64,000 bases of DNA, taken from the sequence record NC_052652.1, one strand, 5' to 3'. Numbering within the stretch: position 1 is the first letter of the stretch; each line of letters opens with the position of its first letter. Below the pieces are notes generated by a model. That model was not told the origin of the DNA, ran no database searches, and saw nothing but the letters and a program-made list of their open reading frames with translations. The translations under genes were made by a program, and so were the position numbers. Shown here one piece after another: positions 3,127 to 45,454 of the stretch. The DNA is from Escherichia phage vB_EcoM_PHB05.

Positions 3127-3127
3127 T

Positions 3128-3295: not shown

Positions 3296-3304
3296 GGAGA
3301 GGTT

Positions 3305-6189: not shown

Positions 6190-6190
6190 T

Positions 6191-6385: not shown

Positions 6386-6615
6386 ACATCGGACAACCAA
6401 TTTTTGATGCAGATACTGGTCAATATGCAGTGATTGTTGCTCGTATGAGTGGGGATGATTTTATTGTTTCAGAACTACTCGGATCAGATCCGCAACTGCG
6501 CGTAGTTTGTGACCTATATCTTCGAGACGAAAGTGATCGCATTGCACTGAAAGAAGATGGTATGCTCTACTACACCTGGACTAGAGATCCTGGGGTAACG
6601 GAGGTAGAGGTATAA
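6376..6615 (+). CDS. hypothetical protein
   Basis: 79-aa ORF with AAGGAGA RBS. Confidence 0.45.
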   Translation: MQLNIGQPIFDADTGQYAVIVARMSGDDFIVSELLGSDPQLRVVCDLYLRDESDRIALKEDGMLYYTWTRDPGVTEVEV

Positions 6616-6914
6616 TGGTAAGGAATAGGGGCTTACATAAAAGAAGACATCTCACTTACTGGCATCGTAAAGTACATGAACCTGTATCAAAGAAAGAATG
6701 GCAATACCTGCCTTATGGAAAGGAGCGAAGAAAGTATTTGTTAGCTCATTTAAGGGTACATGGTTCGCTTCCTGTTAACAGTAAGTGGCAATTGCAAACA
6801 GCTTATGACGAGGATATGAAATATCTGTTAAAGAGGGGCATTATTTGCCTTGTTAAGATAGGACGATGGAAATCTCGTCAATCTTATATCGTACTTAAAC
6901 AGGAGAAACCATGA
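6615..6914 (+). CDS. hypothetical protein
   Basis: 99-aa basic ORF; start/stop overlap with upstream gene. Confidence 0.45.
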   Translation: MVRNRGLHKRRHLTYWHRKVHEPVSKKEWQYLPYGKERRKYLLAHLRVHGSLPVNSKWQLQTAYDEDMKYLLKRGIICLVKIGRWKSRQSYIVLKQEKP

Positions 6915-7162
6915 ATATCAAAGATGTTGTCGCATACGTGGAAGATGAAGTTAAAAACCATACAAGTTTACTGAAAGTAATGGTTGTGGTTAAAAATGGT
7001 ATTGGACAAGTAAACGTACAACATGTCTTATCTGACACTGTATACAATGTGTTTGAATGTAAAGAAACACCTCATGGAGTACGTGTGGTTTATATTGATA
7101 ACAATTTCAAAGAATGTGTGAGACATACCTTAGAAAATGAACTAAGGATCACAATCCTATGA
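6911..7162 (+). CDS. hypothetical protein (paralog of 697-1158 product)
   Basis: 83-aa ORF similar to N-terminal region of the 697 ORF. Confidence 0.5.
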   Translation: MNIKDVVAYVEDEVKNHTSLLKVMVVVKNGIGQVNVQHVLSDTVYNVFECKETPHGVRVVYIDNNFKECVRHTLENELRITIL

Positions 7163-7332
7163 GTTATTATGTTGTACCTTATGCCAATAAGTGGAGAGTA
7201 AGAGAAACTTGTTTTCTATTCTCCTGGTGGGCTACATTCGGAGATGGTTGTGGAAATGATACAGGAAAGCCTGTAGAGTATGACACGAAAGAAGAATGTG
7301 AACAGTGGATAAAATTAACACAAAGATGTTGA
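7159..7332 (+). CDS. small Cys-rich hypothetical protein (57 aa)
   Basis: ATGA overlap with upstream stop; below ORF-track cutoff. Confidence 0.3.
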   Translation: MSYYVVPYANKWRVRETCFLFSWWATFGDGCGNDTGKPVEYDTKEECEQWIKLTQRC

Positions 7333-7385
7333 CACGATCTTAACTTCTTGTTAGTATCAATGTGTACTAACGATAAGGAGGGTTC

Positions 7386-7610
7386 ATGAAGTCTGTAAAC
7401 AAGTTGCAACAATTTTTGTTATCAACAGCAATCTTTTTGCTTTTGTTAATTGGTATTCTGTATGGTGCAGCTAACTTATACAAGCTACACAAAAATGTAG
7501 AACATAACACAGAGAAGTGCACTATTCTAAAACAAAATAAACAAGCAGAAGATTTCTTAAAGAATAAATGTTACAACTACATTGATTATGAGGAGACAAA
7601 CAATGATTAA
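7386..7610 (+). CDS. small membrane protein
   Basis: AAGGAGG RBS; hydrophobic helix LLSTAIFLLLLIGILYGAANL. Confidence 0.45.
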   Translation: MKSVNKLQQFLLSTAIFLLLLIGILYGAANLYKLHKNVEHNTEKCTILKQNKQAEDFLKNKCYNYIDYEETNND

Positions 7611-8052: not shown

Positions 8053-8271
8053 GTGTACAAATTATATAAAGCAAAAGATAAGTTTACGGGTAATACATCT
8101 GGTTTCTATGTAACACCTCGTGGTGTTGCTGTGTTCGATTGGATCTCTGGTACTCCAGATCGTGAAATAATCTCTCTTGTAAAACTGTCAGAACAAGATT
8201 ATACTTACGGTGACATTACAACGTTCTATTCTCGTGCAGAAAATCCAAAACTAATTGCGGAGTGGGAATAA
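8053..8271 (+). CDS. hypothetical protein
   Basis: 72-aa ORF, GTG start with GAGGAG RBS. Confidence 0.4.
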   Translation: MYKLYKAKDKFTGNTSGFYVTPRGVAVFDWISGTPDREIISLVKLSEQDYTYGDITTFYSRAENPKLIAEWE

Positions 8272-8534
8272 TGGTTACACGATATGGCTTAGAGGTGTAC
8301 AGCCAAGGTGCTGCTGGTCAATGTGATATTGTACCAGATCCAGAAGGGGATTATGTTCTTCTTGCTAATTACAATAAGCTAGAAGAAAGACTTCTGGCTG
8401 TGTATGCTAAAGAGAACAAAACAATCTGCCCTTATTGCAGTGGAATGGGTTGGGTGGTTGCAGATGTTGGACAAATGTACGAATGTGTGCCTTGTAAAAC
8501 CACAGGATTTATTGAAAAGGATACTGACAAATGA
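8271..8534 (+). CDS. hypothetical protein (CxxC...CxxC)
   Basis: Start refined to ATG 8271; CPYC...CVPC pattern suggests zinc ribbon. Confidence 0.4.
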   Translation: MVTRYGLEVYSQGAAGQCDIVPDPEGDYVLLANYNKLEERLLAVYAKENKTICPYCSGMGWVVADVGQMYECVPCKTTGFIEKDTDK

Positions 8535-12316: not shown

Positions 12317-13129
12317 TTATTTAGTCAAATGATCTTCTATCATTTTTATGAAAGCAGGATTGCTAAAAGCATCTGCGGCCTTTTCTCGATAAACAAAGAC
12401 TCCTCTATCTTCGTAAAGAAGAGTTTCTTCGTAATTAATTCCTGGGTTAACAACAATCATTTTTGTACCCATACTAAGTGCAGGGAATAATTCCCAATTA
12501 AAATTGATAACTTGGTTTGAACATCCTACTACAACAACCAAATCTTGCATGGTCAAAGTATCAAACAAGTGAGCCATATCTGCATACAAAGGTGCAGCCT
12601 CACCAAAAAATACAACATTAGGCTTCACCCAGTTATAATCATCTATGTTTATGCTGTTGTAACCAATATCTACCAGTGTTTTGTAATCCCCAGGGTGCAT
12701 ACGGTAAACTACTTCAGGAAGATATCCGTGCACGTGAATAACCGAATCTCTGTCTACACCTGCTCGCTCTAGTAGATCATCAACGTTTGTTGTCAAGTTT
12801 ACTACTTGGTTAGGATATTCCTTAAACCACTTTGCTATTTGAATATGTGCAGCATTAGGTTGTACATCTTTAAGCTCAACACGTCTTTTGTTATAAAATT
12901 CGTGTGTTTTGGCATACAAATCCATACCGTTTTCGTCTACACCACCAACCACTGGAAGATCTGGAGATGTTCTAACACGATAACCTGCTTGGAAAGCTCC
13001 AATATCGCAGACCTCTTCTAAATCATATTCTTGCCATAAAGCACGACCACTATCTGTGTCTGTTCGGAATGTTCGAATCCCACTGTCTGCACTTAAACCT
13101 GCGCCACTGACAAAAATTACTCTTCGCAT
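12317..13129 (-). CDS. Sir2-like (sirtuin-fold) NAD-binding protein, apparently lacking zinc ribbon
   Basis: GAGLSADSGIRTFR matches sirtuin GAGIS.ESGIP.FR; TTNVDDL..AG, HVHG, KPNVVFFGE blocks present; no CxxC pairs seen. Confidence 0.6.
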   Translation of the reverse strand: MRRVIFVSGAGLSADSGIRTFRTDTDSGRALWQEYDLEEVCDIGAFQAGYRVRTSPDLPVVGGVDENGMDLYAKTHEFYNKRRVELKDVQPNAAHIQIAKWFKEYPNQVVNLTTNVDDLLERAGVDRDSVIHVHGYLPEVVYRMHPGDYKTLVDIGYNSINIDDYNWVKPNVVFFGEAAPLYADMAHLFDTLTMQDLVVVVGCSNQVINFNWELFPALSMGTKMIVVNPGINYEETLLYEDRGVFVYREKAADAFSNPAFIKMIEDHLTK

Positions 13130-14460: not shown

Positions 14461-15450
14461 TCATTCCTCCATACACTTAAGAATATGTGCAATGACAGGT
14501 ATAGTCCAACCATTACCTAACATCTTATATGCTTGTGTGTTACTACTCACTTTAAAGTAATCATCTGGAACACCTTGTAAGCGGCAACACTCTTTAACCG
14601 TTAACTTCCTATAATGCACACCTTCACTCAATTTTTCAAAGGCATCCCGATATCTTCCAGGTGGAATGTAAGCTAATAGTACGTCTTTCGGCACAGTTGT
14701 GAGGCAACGAGTTTTTTCACTGTCCTGAACTTCCAAGCAATGTACCAAACGATCAGTTTTAGATGTACTACGTTTGCCATTTTCATTAATTCTACGCCCA
14801 TATATTGCTGCTGGATAAAAAACCAGTTGTCTGCGACTCTTTTCAAAATACTGTTCTATATTACCACCTTTGGCATAATTTGCATCTATGCAATACGCCT
14901 TGTCCCTGTCTACAATACTATCATCTTCAATAATATCTTGCAACACTTCATTGGTAATATCCCAAGGCTTTATTTCCCAATTGCACCAGTATAAACGTTG
15001 TCTATTCTGTGCCGTGAAATCTGCGGAGTTAATGAATACGGGATCAACACCTAAGTAACTTGTGATCACGTTTTCCCACTCCACCTTCATCTTAACGTTT
15101 TCAAGCATGAACTTAACATTAGGGTTAAACTTTTTAATATGTTCAAGAATTTCAACATATTCAAAGAACAGTTTAGATCGCGGATCTTGAAAGTTCAAAC
15201 CCTTACCAGAAGAAGAGAAGCCTTGGCACGGACTACCGCCTAGCAAAAGATCAATTTCTCCCCACGGGATATCCCATTCTCTCCATTTTGTAACATCACC
15301 TAATTGAATAATATCTGGAAAATTAGCTTGGCTTTCAGCTATGGCAAATTTGTCCAATTCTGAGGCATAATACTTATCTACTTCAATACCTGCACTTTTT
15401 AGTGCAAGCATTCCTCCCGACATACCATCAAAAAGACTTAAAACTTTCAT
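14461..15450 (-). CDS. DNA (cytosine-5)-methyltransferase
   Basis: Motif I LSLFDGMSGG (FxGxGG), motif IV GGSPCQGFS (PCQ), ENV motif. Confidence 0.85.
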   Translation of the reverse strand: MKVLSLFDGMSGGMLALKSAGIEVDKYYASELDKFAIAESQANFPDIIQLGDVTKWREWDIPWGEIDLLLGGSPCQGFSSSGKGLNFQDPRSKLFFEYVEILEHIKKFNPNVKFMLENVKMKVEWENVITSYLGVDPVFINSADFTAQNRQRLYWCNWEIKPWDITNEVLQDIIEDDSIVDRDKAYCIDANYAKGGNIEQYFEKSRRQLVFYPAAIYGRRINENGKRSTSKTDRLVHCLEVQDSEKTRCLTTVPKDVLLAYIPPGRYRDAFEKLSEGVHYRKLTVKECCRLQGVPDDYFKVSSNTQAYKMLGNGWTIPVIAHILKCMEE

Positions 15451-19490: not shown

Positions 19491-20153
19491 TTATTTAATA
19501 TTCAATTTTGCACAAAGACGTTGTACCGCTTTGGCATCGAACAAACTCCCACGAATAGTTCTCTTTCCTGATTCATTCAGATGCTTTGCAATCGTCATAT
19601 ATGGCGTTTTACAAGCTCTGTATGCAACTAAAGAATCTTTTAAAGAAAGTGCAAACTCTTTTGAGCGTTTTGCTTCTTCCGTTTTCGTATAATCTGTTCT
19701 TTTGTATTTAGGGTTTGCTGCACCAAGAAGCGTTCCCTTCGCTTTTGCTACCTTAAGGCTCTTCTTAACACGATCAGATATTGCACGAGCCTCTTCTTCT
19801 GCCAGAACTGCTAAAATATTTATTATCATATTTTCAGCGGAGGGCATAGTTGCTATCCGTACATTAATCATCTCTAACAAGGTTGCAACAGAAGCTGTGT
19901 TACGTCCAAGACGGTCAACCTTAGCAACAACAAGTGTAGCACCTGTTTCTTTGCAAAGATTAACAGCTTTTACAAGCTCTCTACGTTGCTTCCAATCGCC
20001 TTTACCAGAATAAAACTCTGCAAAGCTACCTACAATAGTATAATTTTCTTGTGAATCCAGGAAGCGTTGGATATCTGCTTCCTGTGATTCTATACCATAC
20101 TGGTTGCCTTGTTGTTTCTTCTTAGAAAGTCGATGATACAGTACAAACTTCAT
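19491..20153 (-). CDS. serine recombinase (resolvase/invertase family)
   Basis: N-terminal YHRLSKKKQQ...ESQ...IQ and VAKVDRLGRNTASVATLL match resolvase catalytic domain blocks; C-terminal HTH-like region. Confidence 0.75.
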   Translation of the reverse strand: MKFVLYHRLSKKKQQGNQYGIESQEADIQRFLDSQENYTIVGSFAEFYSGKGDWKQRRELVKAVNLCKETGATLVVAKVDRLGRNTASVATLLEMINVRIATMPSAENMIINILAVLAEEEARAISDRVKKSLKVAKAKGTLLGAANPKYKRTDYTKTEEAKRSKEFALSLKDSLVAYRACKTPYMTIAKHLNESGKRTIRGSLFDAKAVQRLCAKLNIK

Positions 20154-21625: not shown

Positions 21626-22279
21626 TTAATTATCAGAGGACACTTTATCAAGTTTTTCAGAGACTGTCAATACTTTTTCTTGTGATTCTTTCATTTCTGC
21701 TAAAATACTTTCAGCTTCATCACTATCAGGATCACCAGTCAACAGCATACTAATTAGTTGCTCCTTGCTGAAGTTCAGAATATCTTCCGCTGTTAGCTCC
21801 AGTTGTTCTTCGATCTCTTCAACAAAAGTTTCACCGCCTGAAAAAGCATCTCGTAGTTTTGCAACTTCCATCGCTTCTTCTGGGGTTGCCCCAGCGTCTA
21901 AAGCTGCTAAAGCAAAATCTGCCCCACTACCAACAGCATAGTAATCTTCAGTTAAAGGGTATGCTCGCGTTGGATTATTACCCTCGTGCATATAAATTTT
22001 ACCGTCTGGGTGAACAACCAATGCCACAAACTCTTCATCTTCTTTATCAGGATCTGACTGGATCACCAAACCTGGGATTGTCTCTTGTGCTGCCTGGCAC
22101 TGTAAGTTTTGTTCGAACCAAGAAAAGAAAGTCAGGATAGAAGACAGACGTCCTGCACCACCAACAAGGTAATCCCCAATTTTACGCACTTTCTTGAAAT
22201 TTAAAGTGTCTACTCGATTACCTACTGTTACTTTACCGTCAGATAGAATTTTGTTATGTGTTGCAATAATTGTTGTCAT
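21626..22279 (-). CDS. HslV-like Ntn-hydrolase peptidase
   Basis: N-terminal M-TTIIAT (Thr right after Met) and blocks GDGKVTVGN...KKVRKI, GGAGRLSSILTFF, YAVGSGADFALAA parallel E. coli HslV. Confidence 0.65.
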   Translation of the reverse strand: MTTIIATHNKILSDGKVTVGNRVDTLNFKKVRKIGDYLVGGAGRLSSILTFFSWFEQNLQCQAAQETIPGLVIQSDPDKEDEEFVALVVHPDGKIYMHEGNNPTRAYPLTEDYYAVGSGADFALAALDAGATPEEAMEVAKLRDAFSGGETFVEEIEEQLELTAEDILNFSKEQLISMLLTGDPDSDEAESILAEMKESQEKVLTVSEKLDKVSSDN

Positions 22280-24258: not shown

Positions 24259-24525
24259 TTACTCCGCAATCTGAGCCATGAATTCACGTAGTTCAGAAAA
24301 ACCTCCTACGTGGGTTAGATGTTCACCATCTTCCACAAAAATTTGAGGAAAGGTACGTGGCAGAACACCTGTTTTCTCTAAAACCAGATTCTGAATCTGA
24401 TCTAAAGAATAGTCTTCATCTAAGGTAAGATATTTAAAATCCTGTTCACGCTGTTCCAGTAGAATCTTAGCGTTAGTGCAGAAAGGACAATTTGGTTTAC
24501 CGTAGATAATAAAATTCATTTTCAC
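24259..24525 (-). CDS. glutaredoxin (NrdH/Grx-like)
   Basis: CPFC active site near N-terminus, about 88 aa. Confidence 0.8.
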   Translation of the reverse strand: MKMNFIIYGKPNCPFCTNAKILLEQREQDFKYLTLDEDYSLDQIQNLVLEKTGVLPRTFPQIFVEDGEHLTHVGGFSELREFMAQIAE

Positions 24526-25352
24526 TCCTTGTTTAAAAGTATAGTTAAAGTTCTTACAATACCGCTATCAACACTTCGCGGAGTTAAAGTAGGATCTGTT
24601 TTTAAATAAGATGTTGCTGGTCTGACTGCTTTAGAATTATAGGTTGAAGCAGATACAGGATTAACTGTAACAGATAAATCTATAACAAGAAATATCTTAC
24701 GTGCAAAATCATACCAAGAAATATAATCTGCACCTGCATAGTGTACAATTTTACTATTTACACCATCTTTTACAAGTTTAAAAATTGTTTCTGCAAGATC
24801 AGGTGCATAAGTAGGACATGATAAATGATCACATACTACATTAAATTCTTTTTGACCACCGTTGTAGCGTTCCAACATAGTTTTCAAAAAGTTATGTCCA
24901 AATTCACTATAAACAGAAGCTGTTCTGATAATAAGTGCTGTAGGACAAACTGCTTGTACTAAAGTTTCACCTAATTGTTTACTGTAACCGTAGGTGTTCA
25001 AGGGGTTTGTTTTACTATCTTCTGTGCCAGCAACATTCCCATCAAAAACATAGTCTGTTGAAATATGTACAAACTGTATCAGTAAATCATTACATGCTTT
25101 GGCAATGTTTGTTGCACCGTATGCATTAACATTTATACAAGTGTTAACATCTTCTTCAGCTTTATCTACTGCCGTGTAAGCTGCACAATTCACAACAACA
25201 TCAGGCACGTGCTGTACAAGACTATTCATAACATCTTTAAAGTTGGTAATGTCTATATCACTTGCTTCAATCAAAATAACATCTTCGGGCGCAACTTTTG
25301 CCAAAGACTGTCCTAATTGACCTTTTGAACCAAAGATTAAAAATTTTGTCAA
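24522..25352 (-). CDS. rmlD: dTDP-4-dehydrorhamnose reductase
   Basis: N-terminal Rossmann FGSKGQLG, STDYVFDG, YGYSK catalytic motif; last gene of rml block. Confidence 0.8.
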   Translation of the reverse strand: MTKFLIFGSKGQLGQSLAKVAPEDVILIEASDIDITNFKDVMNSLVQHVPDVVVNCAAYTAVDKAEEDVNTCINVNAYGATNIAKACNDLLIQFVHISTDYVFDGNVAGTEDSKTNPLNTYGYSKQLGETLVQAVCPTALIIRTASVYSEFGHNFLKTMLERYNGGQKEFNVVCDHLSCPTYAPDLAETIFKLVKDGVNSKIVHYAGADYISWYDFARKIFLVIDLSVTVNPVSASTYNSKAVRPATSYLKTDPTLTPRSVDSGIVRTLTILLNKE

Positions 25353-25903
25353 AATATGATCTCCTTTAGTGTTTTGGCTTGCTGATCTTTTTGTGACAAG
25401 ATAGGTTTAAAATTAATATCATTAAAGATTAAATCAAAACCCCAATCTATATTGATATCTGGATCATTCCACGCAAGACTACACTCTGAAGTCGGATCGT
25501 AATATTCTGTACATTTATATTCAAAATCAGCAATGTCGCTAATCACAACAAAGCCATGAGCGAAACCAGGAGGAATCCAAAATTGTGTTTTATTCTTTTC
25601 AGATAAGAGAACACCTACCCATTCTCCAAATGTTGGACTACCAACCCTAATATCTACAGCAACATCATAAACTTCACCACGAACACAACGTACTAACTTC
25701 CCTTGTGGGTTTTTCTTTTGAAAATGAAGTCCACGTAGAACTCCTCTGATAGAACGTGAATGGTTATCTTGGACAAAGTTTTGTTTACCTATGTATTGAT
25801 CATATAAAGCCTGATTAAAACTTTCTAAGAAAAAACCACGTTCATCTCCGTAAACGTCAGGTTGAATGATCAACAAATCTTCGATTTTTGTTGCTTGAAT
25901 CAT
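25349..25903 (-). CDS. rmlC: dTDP-4-dehydrorhamnose 3,5-epimerase
   Basis: 184-aa cupin with DERGFF and RGLHFQ motifs. Confidence 0.8.
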   Translation of the reverse strand: MIQATKIEDLLIIQPDVYGDERGFFLESFNQALYDQYIGKQNFVQDNHSRSIRGVLRGLHFQKKNPQGKLVRCVRGEVYDVAVDIRVGSPTFGEWVGVLLSEKNKTQFWIPPGFAHGFVVISDIADFEYKCTEYYDPTSECSLAWNDPDINIDWGFDLIFNDINFKPILSQKDQQAKTLKEIIF

Positions 25904-25918
25904 TTAACTCCCCCTTTT

Positions 25919-26788
25919 TTATTTTAATTTAAGTAAATACTTACCGTAGTCTGTTTTACTTAAAACCTCTCCAGAACTTTTTACAGAGTCTAAAGTAATC
26001 CATTCATTTTTAAAAGCAATCTCTTCTAGGCATGCAACCTTCATACCTTGTTGCTTTTCTATTGCATGAACAAATTGAGATGCTTCCATAAGACTTTCAT
26101 GTGTTCCTGTATCCAGCCAAGTGAAACCTCTTCCTAGTTTACAGACACGTAAAGCCTTTTCTTTCCAGTACATCTCATTTATATCTGTAATCTCTAACTC
26201 CCCTCTAGCAGAAGGTTTAACACTCTTAGCTTTCTGTATAACAGAATTATCGTAAAAGTACAAGCCTGTAATTGCATAGTTGCTTTTTGGTGCTTTTGGT
26301 TTTTCTTCAATACTCACCACTGTACCTTCAGAATCAAACTCAACAACACCAAATCTTTCAGGATCATTTACGTGATACCCAAAAATATTAGCTCCACCAT
26401 TCTTTTCAATATGTTCTTTAGCAGAATCTAAAATGCTACCAAAACTCTGACCAAAGAATAAATTATCACCTAGCACAAGTGCTACAGAATCTTCACCAAT
26501 AAAGTTCTCACCAATAATAAAGGCTTCTGCTAAACCTTTTGGGCTGTTCTGTACTGCATACTGTAGGGAAATACCAAAAGAAGAACCATCACCTAAAAGA
26601 TTTACAAAATTAATTTGATCTTCTGGTGTTGTAATTATTAGTATTTCCCTAATTCCAGAAAGCATTAGGACAGAGAGTGGATAATAAATCATAGGCTTAT
26701 CGTAAATTGGTAATAGTTGTTTACTAACCCCTTTAGTAACTGGGTAAAGTCTTGTTCCGCTACCACCTGCTAAGATAATACCTTTCAT
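25919..26788 (-). CDS. rmlA: glucose-1-phosphate thymidylyltransferase
   Basis: [18 protein letters not shown] nucleotidyltransferase signature, about 289 aa. Confidence 0.9.
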
Positions 26789-26796
26789 ACTCCTCC

Positions 26797-27786
26797 TTAA
26801 ACTTTATTTTCCCACCACTCTTTGTTATCTACATACCAATCAATGGTTGAATAAAGTTTTTCTTCAAATGTGCCTTTAGCTTTCCACCCTAATTCCTTTT
26901 CAATTTTATAAGGATTCACTTCATATCTTAAATCATGTCCAGGTCTATCTGTAACCATTTCAATGAGGCTACAAGCATCTGTTTCAGATGGATATACCGC
27001 ATCCATATAATCACAAATCATATAGATTACATCAATATTAGTTCTAGGGTTTCTTCTTCCAATATTATATGTCTCTCCAGATTTGCCTTTAGTTACTACT
27101 AGGTGTAATGCTTCTGCGTGATCGTCAACGTATAACCAGTCTCTTACTTGAAGACCATTGCCATAAACAGGGATTGGTTTATTCATCAAGATATTTGTTA
27201 TCGTTTTAGGTATTAGTTTTTCTGGATGATGATATGCTCCAAAATTATTTGAACAATTTGTTATAACTGTCGGAATACCATAAGTACGATGCCACGCTCT
27301 TACCAAATGATCGCTTGCTGCCTTAGATGCAGCATATGGACTACTTGGCTTATAAGGATTCTGTTCTGTAAACGGATAATCCCCTTCTTCCATATCACCA
27401 TATACTTCATCTGTTGAAATATGATGGAACATTTTAAGATTTGATTTATCTCCCATTAAACGAACAGCTTCTAGAAGATTAAATGTCCCAACAATATTTG
27501 AATTTATAAAAACACTCGGTGATGCTATTGAATTATCTACGTGACTTTCTGCTGCAAGATGCATTATATAATCTGGATTAACATCTGCCACAATCTTAGC
27601 AGTTAACTGCGCATTTGTCAAGTCAACACGACAAAACTTTACATTGGGTGTTTCTGATAAATTTCTAGGGTCTGAAGCGTAACCCCATTTATCTATAACG
27701 TAAATATCATTTTTAGTATTTTTAGCCAGGAAACGAACTACCGCACTTCCAATAAAGCCTAAACCACCTGTTACTAAGTATTTCAT
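26797..27786 (-). CDS. rmlB: dTDP-glucose 4,6-dehydratase
   Basis: TGGLGFIGS Rossmann motif, YAASKAASD (YxxxK), DRPGHDLRY. Confidence 0.9.
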
Positions 27787-28665: not shown

Positions 28666-28852
28666 ACTTGGCTACACCATTAACTATGATATGACCGCAA
28701 GACATAACTCCTAGCCAATGATCACCATTCTTTTTTAAACGTTTGCCGTAAACATCACAGAAACCATTCTGTAATTCGGAAGCCTCGTAAGAGGCTCCCT
28801 TTTCGAAAACGTCTTTGAAGTCAGAAATTAATCCAACACAAAGTAGTTTCAT
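28634..28852 (-). CDS. hypothetical protein
   Basis: 72-aa ORF. Confidence 0.4.
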   Translation of the reverse strand: MKLLCVGLISDFKDVFEKGASYEASELQNGFCDVYGKRLKKNGDHWLGVMSCGHIIVNGVAKFEIIKGEKDD

Positions 28853-29937
28853 TAAAAGTCTAACTCCTCGTCATCACTTACATCTTTATTTGCTGAATTC
28901 AGTTTGTAAGCTGTAATTTGGATCTCCTGTGCTGCTGCTTGAATTTGATCTGGGTTTAACCAAACATCCATCCAAGGCAGTGGACTTTTCTTCGGTGCAC
29001 GGAATTTGTGTTTCATTTTCAGTCTGCGATAGATAGGCGCAGCATTGAAGTAAACCCAAAGTTTGAACAACTCTGCGTTACCACCAACGATAACCCTTCC
29101 TTCACTAAACAGATAGTCACACCAATCTTCCTCTTGTCCAACTACCGTGTCAAGAATTTCTGTCAGAACGTCGATATTATCTTCGTATACTTTTCTCCAA
29201 ACAGGATCTTTCAGCAGTGCATCAATAATAGCATAATCCATTTTAACGTGCAATAGTTCATCCAACATAATTTTTTGAATGAGTTTAGCTGCACCTACAA
29301 ACAGTTGCTGCTCTGCTAAGGCAAATGTTGCAGCAAAAGAGGATATGAATTGAATGCCTTCCAGACCGATAAGTGCAATCATTCCTTTCAGGATCAGTAG
29401 ACGAAGGTTATCATCCTTCTCGATCAGACCTAGAGCATATTTATGTCCTGCCTCTGCCAGATCACTCATTACCTCTTCAACTATACCCATCCTCTGGAAG
29501 ATTCTTTCGTTCTCCATAATCTGATCGATAACTTCATTTGGATTAGGGATACACTGACGAATAATTTCAGAATATGTCAAAGCGTGTAAAACTTCCATTT
29601 CTGATTGCTTCATCATCATTGCACATGCTTCGTTGTTGCTTAAAAATGGTGCAAACAAAGTGATAATTGATTTAGCAAGTGAATCATTTTCCCATTGGAA
29701 AGATAGGTTTTTGATCATAACATCGTAGTTGCTTTTAGAACAAGCTACGAAATCTTTTCGTGTCTGATCTAAGTCTACTTCGTTTTCATCCCAATCTTGC
29801 TGTTTTTGTAGTTTGTACAGACGATGCATTTCTGGGTATGTTACATTAATAGAATCAAAAATACCTAACTGTTCTCCCAAAAATACAGGATAGAAACCTT
29901 CTTTGTAAGTGTCGTTGTATAAATTAATCGCTGCCAT
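28852..29937 (-). CDS. nrdB: ribonucleotide reductase small subunit (class Ia beta)
   Basis: Iron-ligand-type blocks EVLHALTYSE, GLEGIQFISSFAATFALAEQ, DELLHV; 361 aa. Confidence 0.85.
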   Translation of the reverse strand: MAAINLYNDTYKEGFYPVFLGEQLGIFDSINVTYPEMHRLYKLQKQQDWDENEVDLDQTRKDFVACSKSNYDVMIKNLSFQWENDSLAKSIITLFAPFLSNNEACAMMMKQSEMEVLHALTYSEIIRQCIPNPNEVIDQIMENERIFQRMGIVEEVMSDLAEAGHKYALGLIEKDDNLRLLILKGMIALIGLEGIQFISSFAATFALAEQQLFVGAAKLIQKIMLDELLHVKMDYAIIDALLKDPVWRKVYEDNIDVLTEILDTVVGQEEDWCDYLFSEGRVIVGGNAELFKLWVYFNAAPIYRRLKMKHKFRAPKKSPLPWMDVWLNPDQIQAAAQEIQITAYKLNSANKDVSDDEELDF

Positions 29938-30299: not shown

Positions 30300-32561
30300 T
30301 TACATCTTACAAGCCTCACAACCAGATTCTTCATCTTCTTGAGCGAGTGAGGTTGCCGATTTTGTTCTACTATTTAGATAGTACAAAGATTTACCACCAA
30401 GTTTTGCAAACTGAAGGATATATTGCATTTCTGATTTAATGGATAAACGACCACCTTCCATCTTAGAATAGTCAATCCACTTATCACATGATGCACCTTG
30501 ATCTAAGAATTTAGTCAATAATCCATATGCTTCAGCCATATCTTTATCTGGCGTATCCCAAGCCGATTGGTAAATATCTTTTAGTTTATCATAGTCTGGC
30601 ACAATAAATAGGACATTACCTTTTTGGCTTTGTTTATAAACTATAGTATCACGTACAGGATACACAGAGTTAGTCGTATTACTTACGAGACTACTGGACT
30701 CATTCGGAGCAATAGCTGCTAATACACTATTTCGGATACCGCCTTGTGCAATGATATCTTGTCGTAAACCTTCCCAATCCATTTTAAGTTTAAAATTGCC
30801 AATATCGTCTACAGCTTTAGCGTAGGTATCAATAGGCAACCATCCTTCAGGCCATTTGGTTTTATGCATCCATTCTGCATTACCCTTCTCTTTTGCCAAA
30901 CGAAGAGAAGCTCTTGCTAACCAGTAATAATGCCTTTCTGCTAATTCGTGAATTAGTTTTTTGCCGTAAGGATCTGAATAAGTAACAAAATTACTTGCCA
31001 GATAATGTGCAAGGTTTGTAATACCTACACCGATAGACCTACGTGCTTTAGCAGTGATTTCGTTATGTTTAAACGGATACTGCATTGTTTCAATAACATT
31101 ATCAATAGTTAGAACTGTATAATATGCAACATCTTCATATTCTTCTGGTGTAACACGACCAGCTACAATAGAAGACAGGAAGCATAATGCCAATTCTTGA
31201 TCTTCTGTATTCTCACCTGTGAAAAGATCAGTCATATTGTGAAATGCTTTCGTAGGTAAGAAAATTTCTTGGCACAAGTTTGACTGATAAATAACATCCT
31301 TAAACGGAGTATGCCTATTAGCATTATCCGCAAAGAACATATAAATACGTCCTGTCTCTGCTCTTTGTGTAATAATTTCTGCCAGAAGATCTCGTGCTTT
31401 TACAAACTTCTTCTTAATACGTTTGCGACTAACTTTTTCATATACTTCTTCAAACTCTTCCTCGCTTTTATAAAGCGCCTCATAGAGTTCTGGTGCTTCG
31501 TCATAACTAACTAGCATCCAATCTTTACCTTTTGCTGCACGGCGCAGGAAAGCATTGTTTACTACGATAGAGTAATCAAGTTTATCTACTCGTTTTTCAC
31601 TAACAGTAGTTGGGTTTTTCAAACGTACCAGATCTTCAAAATCAGGTTCTAATATTGTAAACGTTACTGTTGCACTTCCACCACGACTTGCTTGTTTTGA
31701 TGCTCCAACACTTGTCTCCATCCATTTCAGATATGGTAAAAGACCACCGTGAACAATACGGTTGTTCTTAACACCTTGTCCTGTAGCACGGGTTTGGAGG
31801 TTAACACCAATACCTGCATTATTCAATGTATATTCATGCGCAAGATAGTTAGCAATTGCTAAAGATTCTGCTGTATCATCTGCTCTAAACAGACAACAAG
31901 AAGCACTACCTTTAATCTTAGTACGCAAAGTTGTTAAATAAGGCGATGGTAAATTAATCTTAAGATCACTTACGTAGGTATATAGACGTTTAATGTCTTC
32001 TACTCTGCGATCTTTTGGTTGGATTTCCATTACCTTCATTGCTACACCAATGAATAAAAACTGTGGTGATTCAAAAACAACATCATTGATCGCATCTTTC
32101 ACAAGATACTTATCAACCATCTGGCGCAGTACGGAATAACCATAAGTTAGGTTTTTATCGTGATTGACAATTTTACCAATCTCAATAATTTCTTCTTCTG
32201 TATAATCCATTTTTCCCCAATAGCCTTTACTTACAGACATATTGTAGAAATCCAGGAGGGAGGGGATATTGTGATATCCCCCATGAGCCTGTTTATAAAT
32301 CATACCAAGAAGTAACCGACCTGCCATATCACTATATGCCTGATCTTTCTTATCAATACATGCTGCTATCATAGCTTTATGTAAATCACGAGTAGGCACA
32401 CCGTCGTAACAACGTTTAACAGCTTCAAGTTCAATTTCAGACCAATTTAATTTACCAGCAGCAAACTCTGACCATTTACGAAGTTTTTCTGGATTAAATT
32501 CTTCTTTCTTGCCGTTTGTTTTTGTTACATAACGGATAGATTTGCTTAGATACTGAGTCAC
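30300..32561 (-). CDS. nrdA: ribonucleotide reductase large subunit (class Ia alpha)
   Basis: 753 aa, N-terminal ATP-cone-like region, C-terminal CEAC redox tail, adjacent nrdB. Confidence 0.9.
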   Translation of the reverse strand: MTQYLSKSIRYVTKTNGKKEEFNPEKLRKWSEFAAGKLNWSEIELEAVKRCYDGVPTRDLHKAMIAACIDKKDQAYSDMAGRLLLGMIYKQAHGGYHNIPSLLDFYNMSVSKGYWGKMDYTEEEIIEIGKIVNHDKNLTYGYSVLRQMVDKYLVKDAINDVVFESPQFLFIGVAMKVMEIQPKDRRVEDIKRLYTYVSDLKINLPSPYLTTLRTKIKGSASCCLFRADDTAESLAIANYLAHEYTLNNAGIGVNLQTRATGQGVKNNRIVHGGLLPYLKWMETSVGASKQASRGGSATVTFTILEPDFEDLVRLKNPTTVSEKRVDKLDYSIVVNNAFLRRAAKGKDWMLVSYDEAPELYEALYKSEEEFEEVYEKVSRKRIKKKFVKARDLLAEIITQRAETGRIYMFFADNANRHTPFKDVIYQSNLCQEIFLPTKAFHNMTDLFTGENTEDQELALCFLSSIVAGRVTPEEYEDVAYYTVLTIDNVIETMQYPFKHNEITAKARRSIGVGITNLAHYLASNFVTYSDPYGKKLIHELAERHYYWLARASLRLAKEKGNAEWMHKTKWPEGWLPIDTYAKAVDDIGNFKLKMDWEGLRQDIIAQGGIRNSVLAAIAPNESSSLVSNTTNSVYPVRDTIVYKQSQKGNVLFIVPDYDKLKDIYQSAWDTPDKDMAEAYGLLTKFLDQGASCDKWIDYSKMEGGRLSIKSEMQYILQFAKLGGKSLYYLNSRTKSATSLAQEDEESGCEACKM

Positions 32562-33341: not shown

Positions 33342-34313
33342 TCACCATTTTGTATGGTTCGTCAAAAGTTGACGATGTTGAATCCAACCACAGAAGTTTC
33401 CACTCCACAAACGATGTTTACGATCCATATGTGTAATACCTTCTTCCCAAGAGGAAGGGAACGGAGGAATATTAATACCACCTTTCTGTTGTTTTAATCC
33501 TGACAAATCCATTTCTTTCATTGGCGTTGCCTGGTGTTCAAACGGAGATGCATGTACCTTTTGTCCAGACAGCAAACGAGAATAGATATCCAATGCTTTA
33601 TCTTTAGTATCATTCAACTTACGATAACTTACCTGAGCGCAACAAGAAGCTGAAATAGCTTTTGCTTCATCTTCTGTCAACATTTTCTCGTTGGAGAAGG
33701 TTTCACCCAAGAAATAACGGATCATACCAGTTTCTGGATCTCGATCACGATTAACGTAAGGTGTATGCCATTCTCCTGGGAAAAGAAGATATGGTTCAGA
33801 AGATTCATACAGCTTTTTAATTTCTTTAGCAAGAGCCTCAATAGTAGGATCTGCATCAGCATCTACGCGCAACCACAAGAAGTTTTCTAGCTCTGTAGTG
33901 GTTACTACAGTCTTCATACGCTGAAATGGTTCTAGTAGGCGGTTTGCAACCTGTTTATGATAACCAGCAAGGGCAAACTCTTCTGCAAAACGTGCAGCAC
34001 TTAGTGCAGCCAAGTCCCACCATTCTTTTGCAGTATAACCTGCATCAATCAGGGCATCGTGATCTGTGCCTTTATCTTGCATACCTGGTTGGTTAGCACC
34101 AAAACGATAAGGACGTGCTGGAGATTGCCGTACCATTTCAATTAGAGTTTTAACAGGGATAGCTCGACTTGATGCAGCATTACGAGAAAACAAACGATGC
34201 GTCATCAATTCAGAGTGAATGATTCGAGGATATTCAAGTTCAAAGGTAACAATATCCTTACCTTCGGATGTTTGAGAGTGTGCAATAATTTTTGCTGAAA
34301 TAGAATTCGTCAT
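33342..34313 (-). CDS. thyX: flavin-dependent thymidylate synthase
   Basis: ThyX signature HSELMTHRLFSRNAASSRAIP (RHR-x7-S). Confidence 0.85.
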   Translation of the reverse strand: MTNSISAKIIAHSQTSEGKDIVTFELEYPRIIHSELMTHRLFSRNAASSRAIPVKTLIEMVRQSPARPYRFGANQPGMQDKGTDHDALIDAGYTAKEWWDLAALSAARFAEEFALAGYHKQVANRLLEPFQRMKTVVTTTELENFLWLRVDADADPTIEALAKEIKKLYESSEPYLLFPGEWHTPYVNRDRDPETGMIRYFLGETFSNEKMLTEDEAKAISASCCAQVSYRKLNDTKDKALDIYSRLLSGQKVHASPFEHQATPMKEMDLSGLKQQKGGINIPPFPSSWEEGITHMDRKHRLWSGNFCGWIQHRQLLTNHTKW

Positions 34314-34322: not shown

Positions 34323-34913
34323 TTAAGGTAGTAAAATACTTTCAATTTCTTCCCACTGATTATCTAAACCAGTGATAATTACATTAGGAAGTTTCTTTAA
34401 CTCTTCCAAATATGGATCTTCGTAAATAGTGTTGAAATATATTTTCAACGTTTCATCTGGAAACAGAACAAGATTTTCAGCCCTATCGTCAATAGTTACA
34501 TCGCAAGGTAATAAGTATTTTTCTTTTGTTGCGAAAAAACCATTACCAGATGTTCTACTAAAATCCACTTTATCTAAAGATCGTGTTACGTGTCTATATT
34601 TAGAACTAAGGTGTCCACCCTTAGTGTGACTCGCTATAGATATATTAGCTCCATTTGCAATTATACGATGAACAACATCTGTACTATTAGGTACTACTCC
34701 CATAGTATCATATAGATGTTGGTTATCCCAAAAAGAGTAAGGATCTACACCAAATTGCTTTTTAAAATCAGGGAAATATTTCGTAATATCATAGTGCACA
34801 GTTTTATGTGTCTTATCAAATTTGATATTAGATCTACTTACCGCATTTAACCAATTTAACCATTCTATATCCGCTGGAGCTATTACTAAATCCCAATCAC
34901 ATACTAGACGCAT
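34323..34913 (-). CDS. hypothetical protein (possible HAD-like phosphatase)
   Basis: Start refined to ATG 34913 with AGGAG RBS; N-terminal LVCDWDLVI weakly resembles HAD motif I. Confidence 0.4.
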   Translation of the reverse strand: MRLVCDWDLVIAPADIEWLNWLNAVSRSNIKFDKTHKTVHYDITKYFPDFKKQFGVDPYSFWDNQHLYDTMGVVPNSTDVVHRIIANGANISIASHTKGGHLSSKYRHVTRSLDKVDFSRTSGNGFFATKEKYLLPCDVTIDDRAENLVLFPDETLKIYFNTIYEDPYLEELKKLPNVIITGLDNQWEEIESILLP

Positions 34914-35460
34914 TATTTCTCCTGTTATAACATTTTCTACACATTGTTTCGTAAATGTCTTCTCCTCCAATAACAATCTGTTCTTTAGAGTCGATAAGTC
35001 TAGCATTGAAAATAGCTTTTCTTCCACATTTACAAATGCTTTTCAATTCTGTAATTGAATCTGCTATGGCTAATAACCGTTCAGAACCTTCAAACAATTC
35101 TGTAGCAAAATCTGTTTTAAGTCCATAGCAGAATACAGGAATATCGTAATTATCTACCACATCTCCAAGAATGTCAACCATATCTTTAGTTAGGAATTGT
35201 GATTCATCCACAAATACTGCATCTACTGGATTTTCTTTAAGTTGTGTATAAATTTCCAGCATATCTTCTTTTGTTTTAACTGGTTTTGCTTCCTCTTTAA
35301 TACCTATCCTGGAAGCAATAGCACCACCAGATCTGGTATCTAAAGCTGAAGTTAAAAGAAGAACTTTCATATTTCTTTCTTTATAGTTCCAAGCTGTTTG
35401 TAGAAGATGTGTGCTTTTACCACTGTTCATCGGACTATATCGGAAATAAAGTTTAGCCAT
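34897..35460 (-). CDS. tdk: thymidine kinase
   Basis: P-loop SPMNSGKST, VDESQF, C-terminal Cys cluster CKCG...CRKCY. Confidence 0.85.
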   Translation of the reverse strand: MAKLYFRYSPMNSGKSTHLLQTAWNYKERNMKVLLLTSALDTRSGGAIASRIGIKEEAKPVKTKEDMLEIYTQLKENPVDAVFVDESQFLTKDMVDILGDVVDNYDIPVFCYGLKTDFATELFEGSERLLAIADSITELKSICKCGRKAIFNARLIDSKEQIVIGGEDIYETMCRKCYNRRNNASSM

Positions 35461-43454: not shown

Positions 43455-44387
43455 TTAGCCTCCAAAGAAGTTTTCTATTTCTTTACGTCGCTCTTGTGGA
43501 TCTAAAGCAGCCCATTGAGTCTTAGTAAAGTTGTTTCGAAGCCATTCTAGCAAAGTATAATATTCTTCGTCAACAATTTGTTTAGCATTTTTTGGGTTGT
43601 CCCAAATCATATCCCACTTCTTATTGCCACCACGCATAAGGAATTTCTTAGCAAGATAATATGGTGACTTAATCTTTAACAGCAAGTTAAACGGATAGTT
43701 TGTTTCCCGAACAACAAACCCTTCGTGCTTACAATGTTTAGACATTTCAACAACATCTGAAAATTTAATCATCGGATAAACTTCAGGACGTTTAAATTTT
43801 GTAATAGATGCAATCCCATCAAGCACACCTTCGGGTAGCATGAAACTTGTCCCATCAAGATTTTGAATTCTTGCTCCAATTAAGTATGCGCCTGGTTCTT
43901 CTTCGACAATATGTGGATCAGAAGGATCACAGATTTCAAAAAGGAAAGTTGCTTTTGCACTTTCTGTCCACTTAATGAAATATTCTATGTCATCACACTC
44001 GGAAACAATATGGTTCTTGGCAAGAGTTGCAAAATCTGACTCTAGGCTCCCTGTTGTTGATACAATAAGTTGCCCTTTGTACACACCTACAGATGCCATA
44101 AAACCGTTTACTTTACGGACAGCATCTACAAGCTGGTCTGCTGGAAGATCTGTACCATTCTCAAAACGATTAAAGATTTTAGTAAAAGGCCAGATAACAA
44201 CATTGTCTTCTGAGTCAACAACCAACCCACGACAATCTAGGAGTCGTTTGTCAACGTTCCACAAGTTATCCCAGAATACATTGTTTTTGTATTTAAGTAC
44301 AGCAAGACCAGCATACTCTCCAGATTTAACTTCTTTTTTATGCACTAAACCTTTTGCAATCAGGTCATCACAATTGAACTTAGCCAC
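43455..44387 (-). CDS. covalent nucleotidyltransferase ligase (RNA-ligase-like)
   Basis: Motif I KVNGF, motif III FLFEI, motif IV EGFVVRE, motif V LLLKIK in canonical order. Confidence 0.6.
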   Translation of the reverse strand: MAKFNCDDLIAKGLVHKKEVKSGEYAGLAVLKYKNNVFWDNLWNVDKRLLDCRGLVVDSEDNVVIWPFTKIFNRFENGTDLPADQLVDAVRKVNGFMASVGVYKGQLIVSTTGSLESDFATLAKNHIVSECDDIEYFIKWTESAKATFLFEICDPSDPHIVEEEPGAYLIGARIQNLDGTSFMLPEGVLDGIASITKFKRPEVYPMIKFSDVVEMSKHCKHEGFVVRETNYPFNLLLKIKSPYYLAKKFLMRGGNKKWDMIWDNPKNAKQIVDEEYYTLLEWLRNNFTKTQWAALDPQERRKEIENFFGG

Positions 44388-44388
44388 C

Positions 44389-44940
44389 TTAATCTCCTTT
44401 GATTATCTTATGATGGTCTACAACAACAATATCACGCTTATCCATAATAGAGATGATTTCGTCAAAATGCAAGATTTTTCCGTGTGCATCCCAACCAACA
44501 TCCAACATTTTCCCATACAAATGATCAGGGAATGATCCGTGAGAGTGCCCGTGTAGCATGATTGATCCATGCCCTTGTTTATTCCAAGCAGCCATAGGGT
44601 AATGACTTAAGACGAAGAACAGTTTCTGATATTTCACTTCGTCATAATACACCACCTCGCCATATTCTGCAAGCACTTCTCGGTGTTTGCTGTAATCATG
44701 GTTCCCAACACAGTAAGTGATATCACCTTGAAGACGTGAAGCAATTTTACGGGTATCTTCTTCAGTCCCGAAACAGAAGTCGCCCAAATGCCACATCTTG
44801 ACACCAGGACTCGTAGCACATTTATTCCATGCTTCAATCAGTGCTTCTGTCATATGCTCCATATCTTCCCACGGGCGATATTCAGGAGCAAACTCTCGAA
44901 TACGTTTGTGCATAAAATGCAAATCACTTGTAATAAACAT
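44389..44940 (-). CDS. calcineurin-like metallophosphoesterase
   Basis: SDLHF, GDF, GNHD, GHSH motifs. Confidence 0.8.
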   Translation of the reverse strand: MFITSDLHFMHKRIREFAPEYRPWEDMEHMTEALIEAWNKCATSPGVKMWHLGDFCFGTEEDTRKIASRLQGDITYCVGNHDYSKHREVLAEYGEVVYYDEVKYQKLFFVLSHYPMAAWNKQGHGSIMLHGHSHGSFPDHLYGKMLDVGWDAHGKILHFDEIISIMDKRDIVVVDHHKIIKGD

Positions 44941-45344
44941 TAGTATAATCCCTCGCTGAATAGTTCACTGTCGTGACCATTTCTTTCATAGTTAATTTGT
45001 TTGGCGTTATCTGCAATGATATAAGCATCTTTGCGACTCCACCAATTATAATATTGATCAATAAACCCTTGATTATCAGGTAAGCAAAACAGTTTATCGA
45101 TCAATCCTGCATCTTTTAAAACATTAAGTTGTGCAGATAGTACAGGATTTGCATGCCTAACACAAGGAATAATTAACTCTTCGCCATTGTTGAGAATATA
45201 CTTATTCGCAGCGCAGACTATAACACGTTGAGCATAGTGATCCTCACCAATCCAAGTAAGAGGTTGGTAACAAATATCATGTTGATTAGTAGCGCACATC
45301 AATTTTCTACATACTCTTCGTCTGTATGTATATCGTAAAAGCAA
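44940..45344 (-). CDS. hypothetical protein
   Basis: 134-aa ORF; start uncertain. Confidence 0.45.
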   Translation of the reverse strand: MLLRYTYRRRVCRKLMCATNQHDICYQPLTWIGEDHYAQRVIVCAANKYILNNGEELIIPCVRHANPVLSAQLNVLKDAGLIDKLFCLPDNQGFIDQYYNWWSRKDAYIIADNAKQINYERNGHDSELFSEGLY

Positions 45345-45454
45345 TCTTCAAAAGTTGCAAGTGCTTTTTCTACATCGGGCCAATGGTTAGTGTGTTTGTA
45401 TATATAAAACCCATCCCCTTCATCTACCCAAATAACATAAAGCATAACACCTCC

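Follow-up and report, generated by a model that had tools for sequence, protein, structure and literature searches.

A dTDP-L-rhamnose gene block and a distant glycosyltransferase cluster in phi92-like phages: a possible route to virion glycosylation

The genome of Escherichia phage vB_EcoM_PHB05 (NC_052652.1) carries four consecutive genes of the deoxythymidine diphosphate (dTDP)-L-rhamnose pathway, rmlB-rmlA-rmlC-rmlD, followed by a glutaredoxin gene, grx. They lie at positions 24259-27786 of the 64,000-nucleotide stretch analysed here, which we call the window. Our comparative analyses point to a working dTDP-L-rhamnose pathway that would feed phage glycosyltransferases and so build a glycan coat on the virion, a reading to which, as a whole, we assign a probability of about 0.5. 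In the proposed route, RmlA would convert glucose-1-phosphate and deoxythymidine triphosphate (dTTP) into dTDP-glucose, which RmlB would dehydrate, RmlC would then epimerise and RmlD would finally reduce to dTDP-L-rhamnose. Nearby, nrdAB, grx, thyX and tk may secure the dTTP consumed by RmlA, four soluble phage glycosyltransferases would consume the dTDP-sugar, and the acceptor would be a phage virion protein, which would receive a glycan coat as in the mycobacteriophages Che8 and Corndog. The pathway would provide a phage of very broad host range with its own activated 6-deoxyhexose, whichever O-antigen genes its host strain carries. The O-antigen clusters of E. coli and Salmonella vary in having rmlC and rmlD, so that a phage needing L-rhamnose could not, by this reasoning, rely on its host.

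The rmlBACD block and its place beside the ribonucleotide reductase genes

The span 24259-27786 is filled exactly by five consecutive open reading frames (ORFs) on the minus strand. These are rmlB, for dTDP-glucose 4,6-dehydratase (26797-27786, 329 amino acids), rmlA, for glucose-1-phosphate thymidylyltransferase (25919-26788, 289 amino acids), rmlC, for dTDP-4-dehydrorhamnose 3,5-epimerase (25349-25903, 184 amino acids), rmlD, for dTDP-4-dehydrorhamnose reductase (24522-25352, 276 amino acids), and grx, for a CPFC glutaredoxin (24259-24525, 88 amino acids). All four Rml proteins exceed the NCBIfam equivalog cut-offs, namely TIGR01181 for RmlB (441.4 bits against 365.1), TIGR01207 for RmlA (473.3 against 360.65), TIGR01221 for RmlC (260.4 against 155.75) and TIGR01214 for RmlD (254.5 against 224.05), with Pfam in agreement. 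A preliminary description of the window, made from its letters alone, had proposed the same four identities and the order B-A-C-D; both are borne out, and the motifs that it quoted are present.

The closest solved structures allowed the catalytic residues to be followed one by one. RmlB, RmlA and RmlC are 57%, 66% and 62% identical to their Salmonella counterparts (1g1a, 1iim and 1dzr, respectively), whereas the top PDB match of RmlD is 1vl0, at 40% identity, with Salmonella RmlD (1kbz) weaker. RmlB retains the NAD-binding GxxGxxG motif, the T-D-E motif as STDEVYG and the YxxxK motif as YAASK, and RmlA retains the GGxGTRL signature, the sugar- and dTTP-binding motifs and WLDTGT. In RmlC, the His of RGLHFQ, the Lys of GKLV (GKLVRC) and the Tyr of FEYK are kept; the C-terminal LSQKD Asp, the partner in the His/Asp dyad, is present as read straight from the sequence, since the printed alignment with 1dzr ends short of it. 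Alignment of RmlD with 1vl0 and 3sc6 shows that GSKGQLG (the GxxGxxG motif), ISTDYVF and YGYSK are kept, and with them the Thr/Tyr/Lys triad. None of the four rml genes contains an internal stop or a frameshift, and a Shine-Dalgarno sequence stands ahead of each. The rmlD gene starts with TTG and overlaps the rmlC stop by 4 nucleotides, at the junction ATTTTGA. With all four steps encoded, contiguous, intact and kept together in relatives, rmlBACD very probably constitutes, by gene identity, a complete dTDP-L-rhamnose pathway.

The same four enzyme families with identical catalytic residues, contiguous and translationally coupled, are found in the rml (rfb) operons of Salmonella and E. coli, although the order of the enterobacterial operon, which we take to be B-D-A-C, differs from the phage order. 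The phage block further departs from the bacterial operons in its RmlD, whose closest solved relative is 1vl0 and not the Salmonella enzyme, and in its location between nrdB and grx of a lytic phage, not in an O-antigen cluster, with no adjacent glycosyltransferase, wzx or wzy gene. RmlD seems to be of a different affinity from the other Rml proteins. We also considered promoters and terminators for defining the operon limits, but a scan of 22.5-33 kb gave counts no higher than those in shuffled sequence, with no terminator within the block, and it gives no indication of those limits.

The window is certainly phage DNA. The block matches more than 50 phage records (Justusliebigvirus, phi92-like) at 98-99% nucleotide identity over its full length, among them Serratia phage KKP_3264 (99.2%), ECGD1, alia, PaulScherrer and phi92, of the genus Justusliebigvirus in the subfamily Stephanstirmvirinae. 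Collinearity of the window with phage alia begins at about 89 kb and runs across the genome end into the head genes; the window contains terminase, portal and capsid genes together with 16 tRNA genes. That the rml genes might be decaying remnants of a host operon, or that the window might be bacterial chromosome, had both been raised in the preliminary description; we rejected these readings, whose probability is close to nil, given the intact genes and catalytic residues, the phage context, the identity to phage genomes, and the retention of the block in about 130 genomes of two genera, with more distant members at 39-69% identity. The distance from the Salmonella enzymes (57-66% identity for RmlB, RmlA and RmlC, 40% for RmlD) and the phage-like G+C content at third codon positions (GC3) argue in the same direction.

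The four rml genes differ from those of alia at 31 nucleotides and just 8 amino acids, which indicates that the block is under purifying selection. Their G+C content of 34-35% and GC3 of about 0.2 resemble those of the phage. In a collection of 50,697 phage records, an RmlC homologue was found in 168, of which about 130 belong to Stephanstirmvirinae. When records with at least 95% identity and those with 60-90% identity are counted separately, RmlC yields 53 + 77, NrdB 53-54 + 77 and gp047, one of the glycosyltransferases discussed below, 53 + 77; the glycosyltransferases gp044 and gp046 yield 52 + 74 and 54 + 71. The equal counts of RmlC, NrdB and gp047 therefore indicate that the block is present throughout Justusliebigvirus and the Phapecoctavirus-like group. 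Neither RmlC nor the glycosyltransferases gave a Vequintavirinae record in the match summaries or sampled matches of the phage collection.

Gene order in more distant phages suggests how the block came to lie where it does. Klebsiella phage 05F01, a divergent member of the subfamily, has the order thyX ... nrdA-nrdB-two small ORFs-rmlB-A-C-D-grx-small ORF-endolysin-phoH, with amino-acid identities to the window of 59% for RmlB, 69% for RmlA, 49% for RmlC, 39% for RmlD and 33% for Grx. The Vequintavirus APCEc02, of the sister subfamily, has thyX ... nrdA-nrdB-(92-amino-acid ORF)-nrdD ... nrdG ... phoH, and the rml genes are absent there. The 92-amino-acid ORF directly after nrdB contains a CPxC motif and is 38% identical (E = 1e-17) to the window glutaredoxin. 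Since nrdB and grx are adjacent in the Vequintavirus, gene order indicates that rmlBACD, with a few small ORFs, was inserted between the two long ago, in the lineage of Stephanstirmvirinae. In the window, the upstream edge of this slot is nrdB (28852-29937, minus strand), the gene for the class Ia ribonucleotide reductase small subunit, identified by tblastn against the phage collection and by the annotation of relatives, and syntenic with 05F01 and APCEc02. By this account, rmlBACD would have entered in an ancestor of Stephanstirmvirinae and been retained since. Recent capture from the host, for which a comparison of gene order had been proposed, is not supported, given the subfamily-wide synteny, the 39-69% identity to 05F01, the 57-66% and 40% identity to solved enzymes and the phage-like codon composition.

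The same comparison bears on the glutaredoxin, which the preliminary description had grouped with the sugar genes. The CPFC gene is indeed present: it matches PF00462 with 47.3 bits against a cut-off of 22.9, CPFC being its CxxC active site, and falls below every NCBIfam equivalog cut-off (best score 53 against 90). Its most likely start is the ATG at 24519, preceded by AAGGAG, which would give a protein of 86 amino acids. Because its homologue directly follows nrdB in the Vequintavirus, we assign it to the ribonucleotide reductase module: nrdB-grx would be the ancestral pair, and the glutaredoxin, presumably a reductant of ribonucleotide reductase, a neighbour and not a member of the sugar pathway. 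The APCEc02 homologue, gp113 (8093-8371 of the examined stretch), is labelled 'putative ribonucleotide diphosphate reductase beta chain' in RefSeq, yet it is a CPxC glutaredoxin homologue, and the label looks like a mis-annotation.

The presence of the rml block in these phages is already known, and most of the more than 50 matching records carry annotation for the four rml genes and the glutaredoxin. Its description as unexpected in a virulent phage was overstated, given the dozens of annotated GenBank records and the discussion in PMC7552041, PMC8594841 and PMC10844046. Olsen et al. 2020 (PMC7552041) called the location of rml in the DNA-metabolism region 'peculiar' and suggested the rhamnosylation of hydroxymethylated nucleotides; Maffei et al. 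2021 (PMC8594841) discussed a possible DNA-glycosylation machinery and reported the phages to be 'exceptionally susceptible' to restriction-modification; Vitt et al. 2024 (PMC10844046) repeated the points of both. The rml genes are unmentioned in two genus-description papers, and our literature search found no experimental test of rml function in these phages; several papers that it returned on rhamnose had no bearing on the question, dealing with the sugar as an inducer or with Listeria receptors. Our study adds the reassignment of the glutaredoxin to the ribonucleotide reductase module, the evidence that rmlBACD is an old insertion, and a conserved cluster of four glycosyltransferases with comparative evidence that favours virion over DNA glycosylation.

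More broadly, nucleotide-sugar genes are rare but not unique in phages. Similar rml-like genes, at 34-57% identity, also occur in cyanophages, in Sphingomonas phage PAU and in a 595-kb uncultured phage, and the RmlC genes of phages outside Stephanstirmvirinae stand beside GDP-mannose-dehydratase-type genes where annotation is visible.

A glycosyltransferase cluster and the virion as candidate acceptor

No glycosyltransferase was found in the window by tblastn, in agreement with the preliminary description; this holds for the window and does not extend to the genomes of close relatives. Phage alia (NC_052655) carries four consecutive glycosyltransferase genes, gp044-gp047, at 43544-46720, about 67 kb from rml. 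The cluster immediately adjoins a primase/helicase gene, lies two genes from the DNA polymerase gene, and is made up of two GT4-like GT-B paralogues (gp044 and gp045) and two small GT-A proteins (gp046 and gp047). The high-confidence model of gp044 has a GT4-type GT-B fold. The gp047 protein (187 amino acids, without a Pfam match) was modelled through its 99%-identical homologue P0060, with a pLDDT of 94.7, as a small GT2-like GT-A protein whose fold matches include B4GALNT1, chondroitin polymerase, STIV A197, the Listeria rhamnosyltransferase RmlT and SpsA. The gp046 protein (228 amino acids) is a GT-A protein with a DxD motif and sub-threshold Pfam matches only (TAGT, Glycos_transf_2 and Glyco_transf_7C), and searches of PDB sequences with the single sequence and with the family profile returned chance-level matches only. 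Transmembrane-like segments are absent from all four proteins (maximum Kyte-Doolittle mean over 19 residues of at most 1.21).

The cluster is conserved across Stephanstirmvirinae and is found together with rml in about 130 genomes. Its synteny, hydrolase ... four genes ... primase/helicase-PolA, extends to a metagenomic relative at 48% identity. Citrobacter phage Tr1 has space for just one gene between its gp047 and gp044 matches, which suggests that gp046 is missing from the Tr1 cluster; a copy at 39% identity is present at another site in the genome.

The case for a virion acceptor comes from distant relatives of these enzymes. In Mycobacterium phage Shauna1, gp103 has an N-terminal domain with which the gp046 family aligns over its full length (hhalign probability 99.3%, E = 6e-20), and two genes downstream of gp103 follows gp105, an 87% identical counterpart of Che8 gp110. 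Che8 gp110 is reported to be essential for capsid glycosylation (PMC12363180 and PMC11256854, both citing Freeman 2023). For the gp047 family, the match is to Cellulophaga phage phi18:2 gp39, in its C-terminal half (probability 100%, E = 1e-39); this two-domain glycosyltransferase shares the head module with a Methyltransf_24 gene, the two standing between the portal/minor capsid genes and the prohead protease/major capsid genes. The gp044/gp045 family matches Streptomyces phage KimJongPhill gp6 (probability 99.8%, E = 5e-30), which follows a nucleoside diphosphate (NDP)-sugar 4,6-dehydratase/epimerase-type short-chain dehydrogenase/reductase and a methyltransferase and directly precedes the terminase, portal, scaffold and capsid genes. 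Distant relatives of three of the four glycosyltransferase families are therefore encoded within virion-building modules or beside them, and in one case, in a phage lineage that is unrelated, the relative is paired with an NDP-deoxysugar-type enzyme. From these locations and this pairing we infer both a phage-made deoxysugar donor and a virion-protein acceptor: the phage glycosyltransferases probably take dTDP-rhamnose as their donor, and a virion protein, which is the best supported of the options, may tentatively be named as the acceptor, at somewhat less than even odds. Among the acceptors listed in the preliminary description (DNA, virion proteins or host surface polysaccharide), the virion protein thus gains comparative support, and DNA is the least supported, given the restriction sensitivity of these phages and the failure to find a hydroxymethylase or TET enzyme among the ORFs scanned or in the annotation of alia.

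The sets in the two other phages merit attention in themselves. Both phi18:2 gp38-gp39 (5868-7540 of the examined stretch) and KimJongPhill gp4-gp6 (1199-3758 of the examined stretch) combine methyltransferase and glycosyltransferase genes in or before head genes, and are candidate virion-glycosylation cassettes; we found no report of such a system in either phage.

The mycobacteriophage systems offer the closest parallel. As PMC11256854 and PMC12363180 summarise from Freeman et al. 2023, virion glycosylation in Che8, Corndog and Myrna likewise involves several soluble phage glycosyltransferases whose genes stand apart from the structural operon. In the cluster-F phage Shauna1, the first glycosyltransferase of the corresponding locus is a homologue of the gp046 family, and the pairing of gp047 and gp044 relatives with methyltransferases, of the Methyltransf_24 or another type, recalls Che8 gp108, which is itself a fusion of GT2 and Methyltransf_24/TylF domains. 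Unlike the right ends of Che8 and Shauna1, where glycosyltransferases occur without nucleotide-sugar pathway genes, the present phage brings a complete pathway; it also differs from the mycobacteriophages in its Gram-negative host. A second parallel is found in giant viruses, such as Mimivirus with its UDP-L-rhamnose pathway and the chloroviruses, whose glycosylation is autonomous and whose virion glycans are made independently of the host. There, too, one virus encodes both a 6-deoxyhexose nucleotide-sugar pathway and glycosyltransferases. The giant viruses have eukaryotic hosts and use the UDP-rhamnose route with different enzymes, whereas the phage uses the bacterial dTDP route and has a virion protein as its candidate acceptor.

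Several points weigh against the proposal of a rhamnose-fed virion coat. The phage RmlD is divergent, being 40% identical to its closest solved homologue (1vl0), and the C4 stereochemistry of its product, L-rhamnose and not 6-deoxy-L-talose, is assumed from the equivalog score. The co-occurrence of rml and glycosyltransferase genes is essentially one phylogenetic event and as such weak evidence of coupling, and the fold matches (GT4-like for gp044, GT2-like for gp047) indicate neither donor nor acceptor. Both gene sets share the strand of the replication genes and belong to DNA-metabolism modules, away from the late structural genes, a synteny kept in the distant metagenomic relative. Shauna1 gp103 is an uncharacterised protein. 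When the gp046, gp044 and gp047 families were compared with Che8 gp108, gp109 and gp110, the four hhalign pairs run gave no similarity, gp045 and some of the gp044 and gp047 pairs lying outside the comparison, and we dropped orthology with the characterised Che8 enzymes. Finally, no report of glycosylated virion proteins in any phi92-like phage was found in the literature.

A glycan coat of this kind would have practical consequences. The phages of this group have been isolated repeatedly, are among the coliphages of broadest host range, and are present in therapeutic cocktails; if the proposal holds, our searches suggest that no coliphage supplying its own virion glycosylation would have been known before them. 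The glycan coat of mycobacteriophages lowers antibody binding and neutralisation, a property relevant to phage therapy and to virion stability in the gut. The four-glycosyltransferase cluster, together with the related genes that neighbour head genes in phages of Cellulophaga, Streptomyces and Mycobacterium, provides concrete candidates for knock-out. Should the sugar instead be placed on DNA or on the host envelope, the system would represent a new DNA modification or a new form of receptor masking by a lytic phage.

DNA, the host envelope and other targets

The location of both gene sets speaks for a sugar destined for DNA. By this proposal, already in print (PMC7552041, PMC10844046), the glycosyltransferases would add rhamnose from dTDP-rhamnose to phage DNA, a modified cytosine or thymine being one conceivable target, and the resulting hypermodification would counter restriction. 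The rml genes lie between the ribonucleotide reductase genes and grx, the glycosyltransferase genes abut those for primase/helicase and DNA polymerase, the synteny is kept in a distant relative, and the window encodes a C5-cytosine methyltransferase. Among the enzymes themselves, gp046 scores 24.1 against the cut-off of 27.5 for the TET-associated glycosyltransferase (TAGT) family PF20691, with 16 of 18 members of its family matching weakly, and aligns over 43 residues (E = 4e-5) with PHROG 842, the T-even beta-glucosyl-hydroxymethylcytosine alpha-glucosyltransferase. The T4 alpha- and beta-glucosyltransferases also appear, at ranks 16 and 33, among the fold matches of gp044. However, the PF20691 match of gp046 is limited to residues 16-79, a generic nucleotide-binding/DxD region, and the full-length match to the mycobacteriophage glycosyltransferase is far stronger; as the PF20691 match is sub-threshold and confined to this generic half, we rejected gp046 as a member of the TAGT family. 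The phi92-like phages are 'exceptionally susceptible' to restriction-modification despite their putative dTDP glycosylation machinery (PMC8594841, echoed in PMC10844046), the four glycosyltransferases exceed the number in known DNA systems, and the ORFs around the C5 methyltransferase gave no Pfam TET/JBP match. Neither a hydroxymethylase nor a TET enzyme is annotated in alia or turned up in our profile scan, which covered part of the ORFs of the genome, and the thymidylate synthase is of the ThyX type, not a ThyA-type hydroxymethylase. We accordingly consider glycosylation of the DNA unlikely.

The T-even hydroxymethylcytosine glucosylation and TET-associated systems resemble the present one in having phage glycosyltransferases among DNA-metabolism genes, with the similarity of gp046 weak and below the family threshold. 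They differ in their donor, UDP-glucose, where the phage studied here would use a dTDP-sugar, as well as in the restriction sensitivity of the latter (PMC8594841) and in the hydroxymethylase or TET enzyme, which we did not find among the ORFs scanned. Given that both gene sets lie among replication genes, a narrower version is also conceivable, in which rhamnose or a short rhamnose-containing glycan is placed on the phage's own DNA at sparse or sequence-specific sites, at a density too low to block the restriction systems tested; we judge it quite improbable. Such sparse rhamnosylation would be a chemistry not known from any organism, and to our knowledge no DNA modification uses a dTDP-sugar.

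The C5-cytosine DNA methyltransferase gene lies at 14461-15450 on the minus strand of the window (PF00145, 149 bits), and three further DNA methyltransferases are annotated in alia.

The canonical role of rml genes, the synthesis of surface polysaccharide, raises the alternative of host envelope remodelling, in which phage dTDP-rhamnose and glycosyltransferases would alter intermediates of lipopolysaccharide (LPS), O-antigen, enterobacterial common antigen (ECA) or capsule and thereby mask glycan receptors, to the benefit of the phage through less superinfection or less progeny loss on cell debris. The closest solved folds of gp044 and gp047 belong to polysaccharide and glycolipid enzymes (PglA, WlaC, HepE, PimA, WbnH, chondroitin polymerase and the teichoic-acid rhamnosyltransferase RmlT), and phages of this group recognise ECA, the NGR glycan, the LPS core and capsules (PMC8594841, PMC11984140). 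The machinery for export is the weak side of this alternative: the annotation of alia includes no priming phosphotransferase, flippase, polymerase or GtrA/B-like membrane protein, nor any membrane transferase of the serotype-converting type (GtrABC, Oac, Wzy), and none of the four glycosyltransferases has transmembrane-like segments. A strictly lytic phage would have a short time for export and display, and three of the glycosyltransferases have distant relatives grouped with head genes and not with lysogenic-conversion modules. Envelope remodelling, with either benefit, is therefore doubtful in our judgement.

Another purpose altogether might be served if the acceptor were a host protein or a small molecule, such as a defence factor that is neutralised, or if the block acted on the nucleotide-sugar or dTTP pool. 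The embedding of the block among nucleotide-metabolism genes (nrdAB, grx, thyX and tk) fits this view, and a Burkholderia homologue of gp044 beside an invasin/intimin-like gene hints at non-virion protein targets. A drain on dTTP would be costly for a phage of 37% G+C that carries ThyX and thymidine kinase, and a complete four-step pathway with four conserved glycosyltransferases implies a built glycan, not the manipulation of a pool; no homology to known anti-defence enzymes was seen. A purpose of this sort is decidedly unlikely, and a virion protein remains our preferred acceptor. The Burkholderia homologue, on the B. dolosa contig JAIMDN010000082 (3025-8440 of the examined stretch), is a 411-amino-acid protein with 35% identity to the phage GT-B enzyme, encoded after an invasin/intimin-like inverse autotransporter and a 571-amino-acid protein; the set may serve adhesin glycosylation, and its invasin-like context was set aside as evidence, being too thin.

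Neighbouring genes and minor observations

The flanks named in the preliminary description, endolysin and PhoH downstream and the ribonucleotide reductase (NrdB/NrdA) and ThyX genes upstream, and the phage context itself, agree with the ORFs, the profile matches and the collinearity with alia. The large subunit of ribonucleotide reductase, nrdA, occupies 30300-32561 (minus strand) and is assigned from its ORF and the annotation of the collinear alia gp200. A divergent ThyX-type thymidylate synthase is encoded at 33342-34313 (minus strand; PF02511, 37 bits against a cut-off of 24.8). It is long (323 amino acids) and very divergent, all of its 37 bits coming from the C-terminal two-thirds of the Pfam model, and its activity is presumed; it would supply dTMP, and hence dTTP, and is not a ThyA-type hydroxymethylase. 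The thymidine kinase gene at 34897-35460 (minus strand; PF00265, 185 bits) may likewise contribute to dTTP supply.

Other features of the window concern proteolysis, recombination, NAD metabolism and translation. An HslV/proteasome-like peptidase is encoded at 21626-22279 (minus strand), between the PhoH region and a methyltransferase-like ORF, with a weak match to PF00227 and the alia label 'peptidase HslV family'. A 220-amino-acid ORF at 19491-20153 (minus strand) is collinear with the 'DNA invertase' of alia and the 'resolvase domain-containing protein' of 05F01, and is thus serine-recombinase-like in a strictly lytic phage. The window also encodes, at 12317-13129 (minus strand), a Sir2-family protein (PF02146, 81 bits), likewise in a lytic phage, which may relate to NAD metabolism or counter-defence. 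Two adjacent genes at 47832-48725 and 48797-50530 (plus strand) are the positional equivalents of the alia ribose-phosphate pyrophosphokinase and nicotinamide phosphoribosyltransferase, names transferred from its annotation; such a pair would represent NAD salvage and may counter NAD-depleting host defences. The tRNA array at 51277-54158 (plus strand) comprises 16 genes, including three tRNA-Met-like (CAT), two Leu and two Ser genes.

Among the database records that match the block, MG065639, MG065645, MG065656 and MG065689 are named 'Campylobacter phage', with Campylobacter jejuni as host. They are 98.5% identical to the block and have the genome sizes of Justusliebigvirus, and are probably coliphage contaminants or records with mislabelled hosts.

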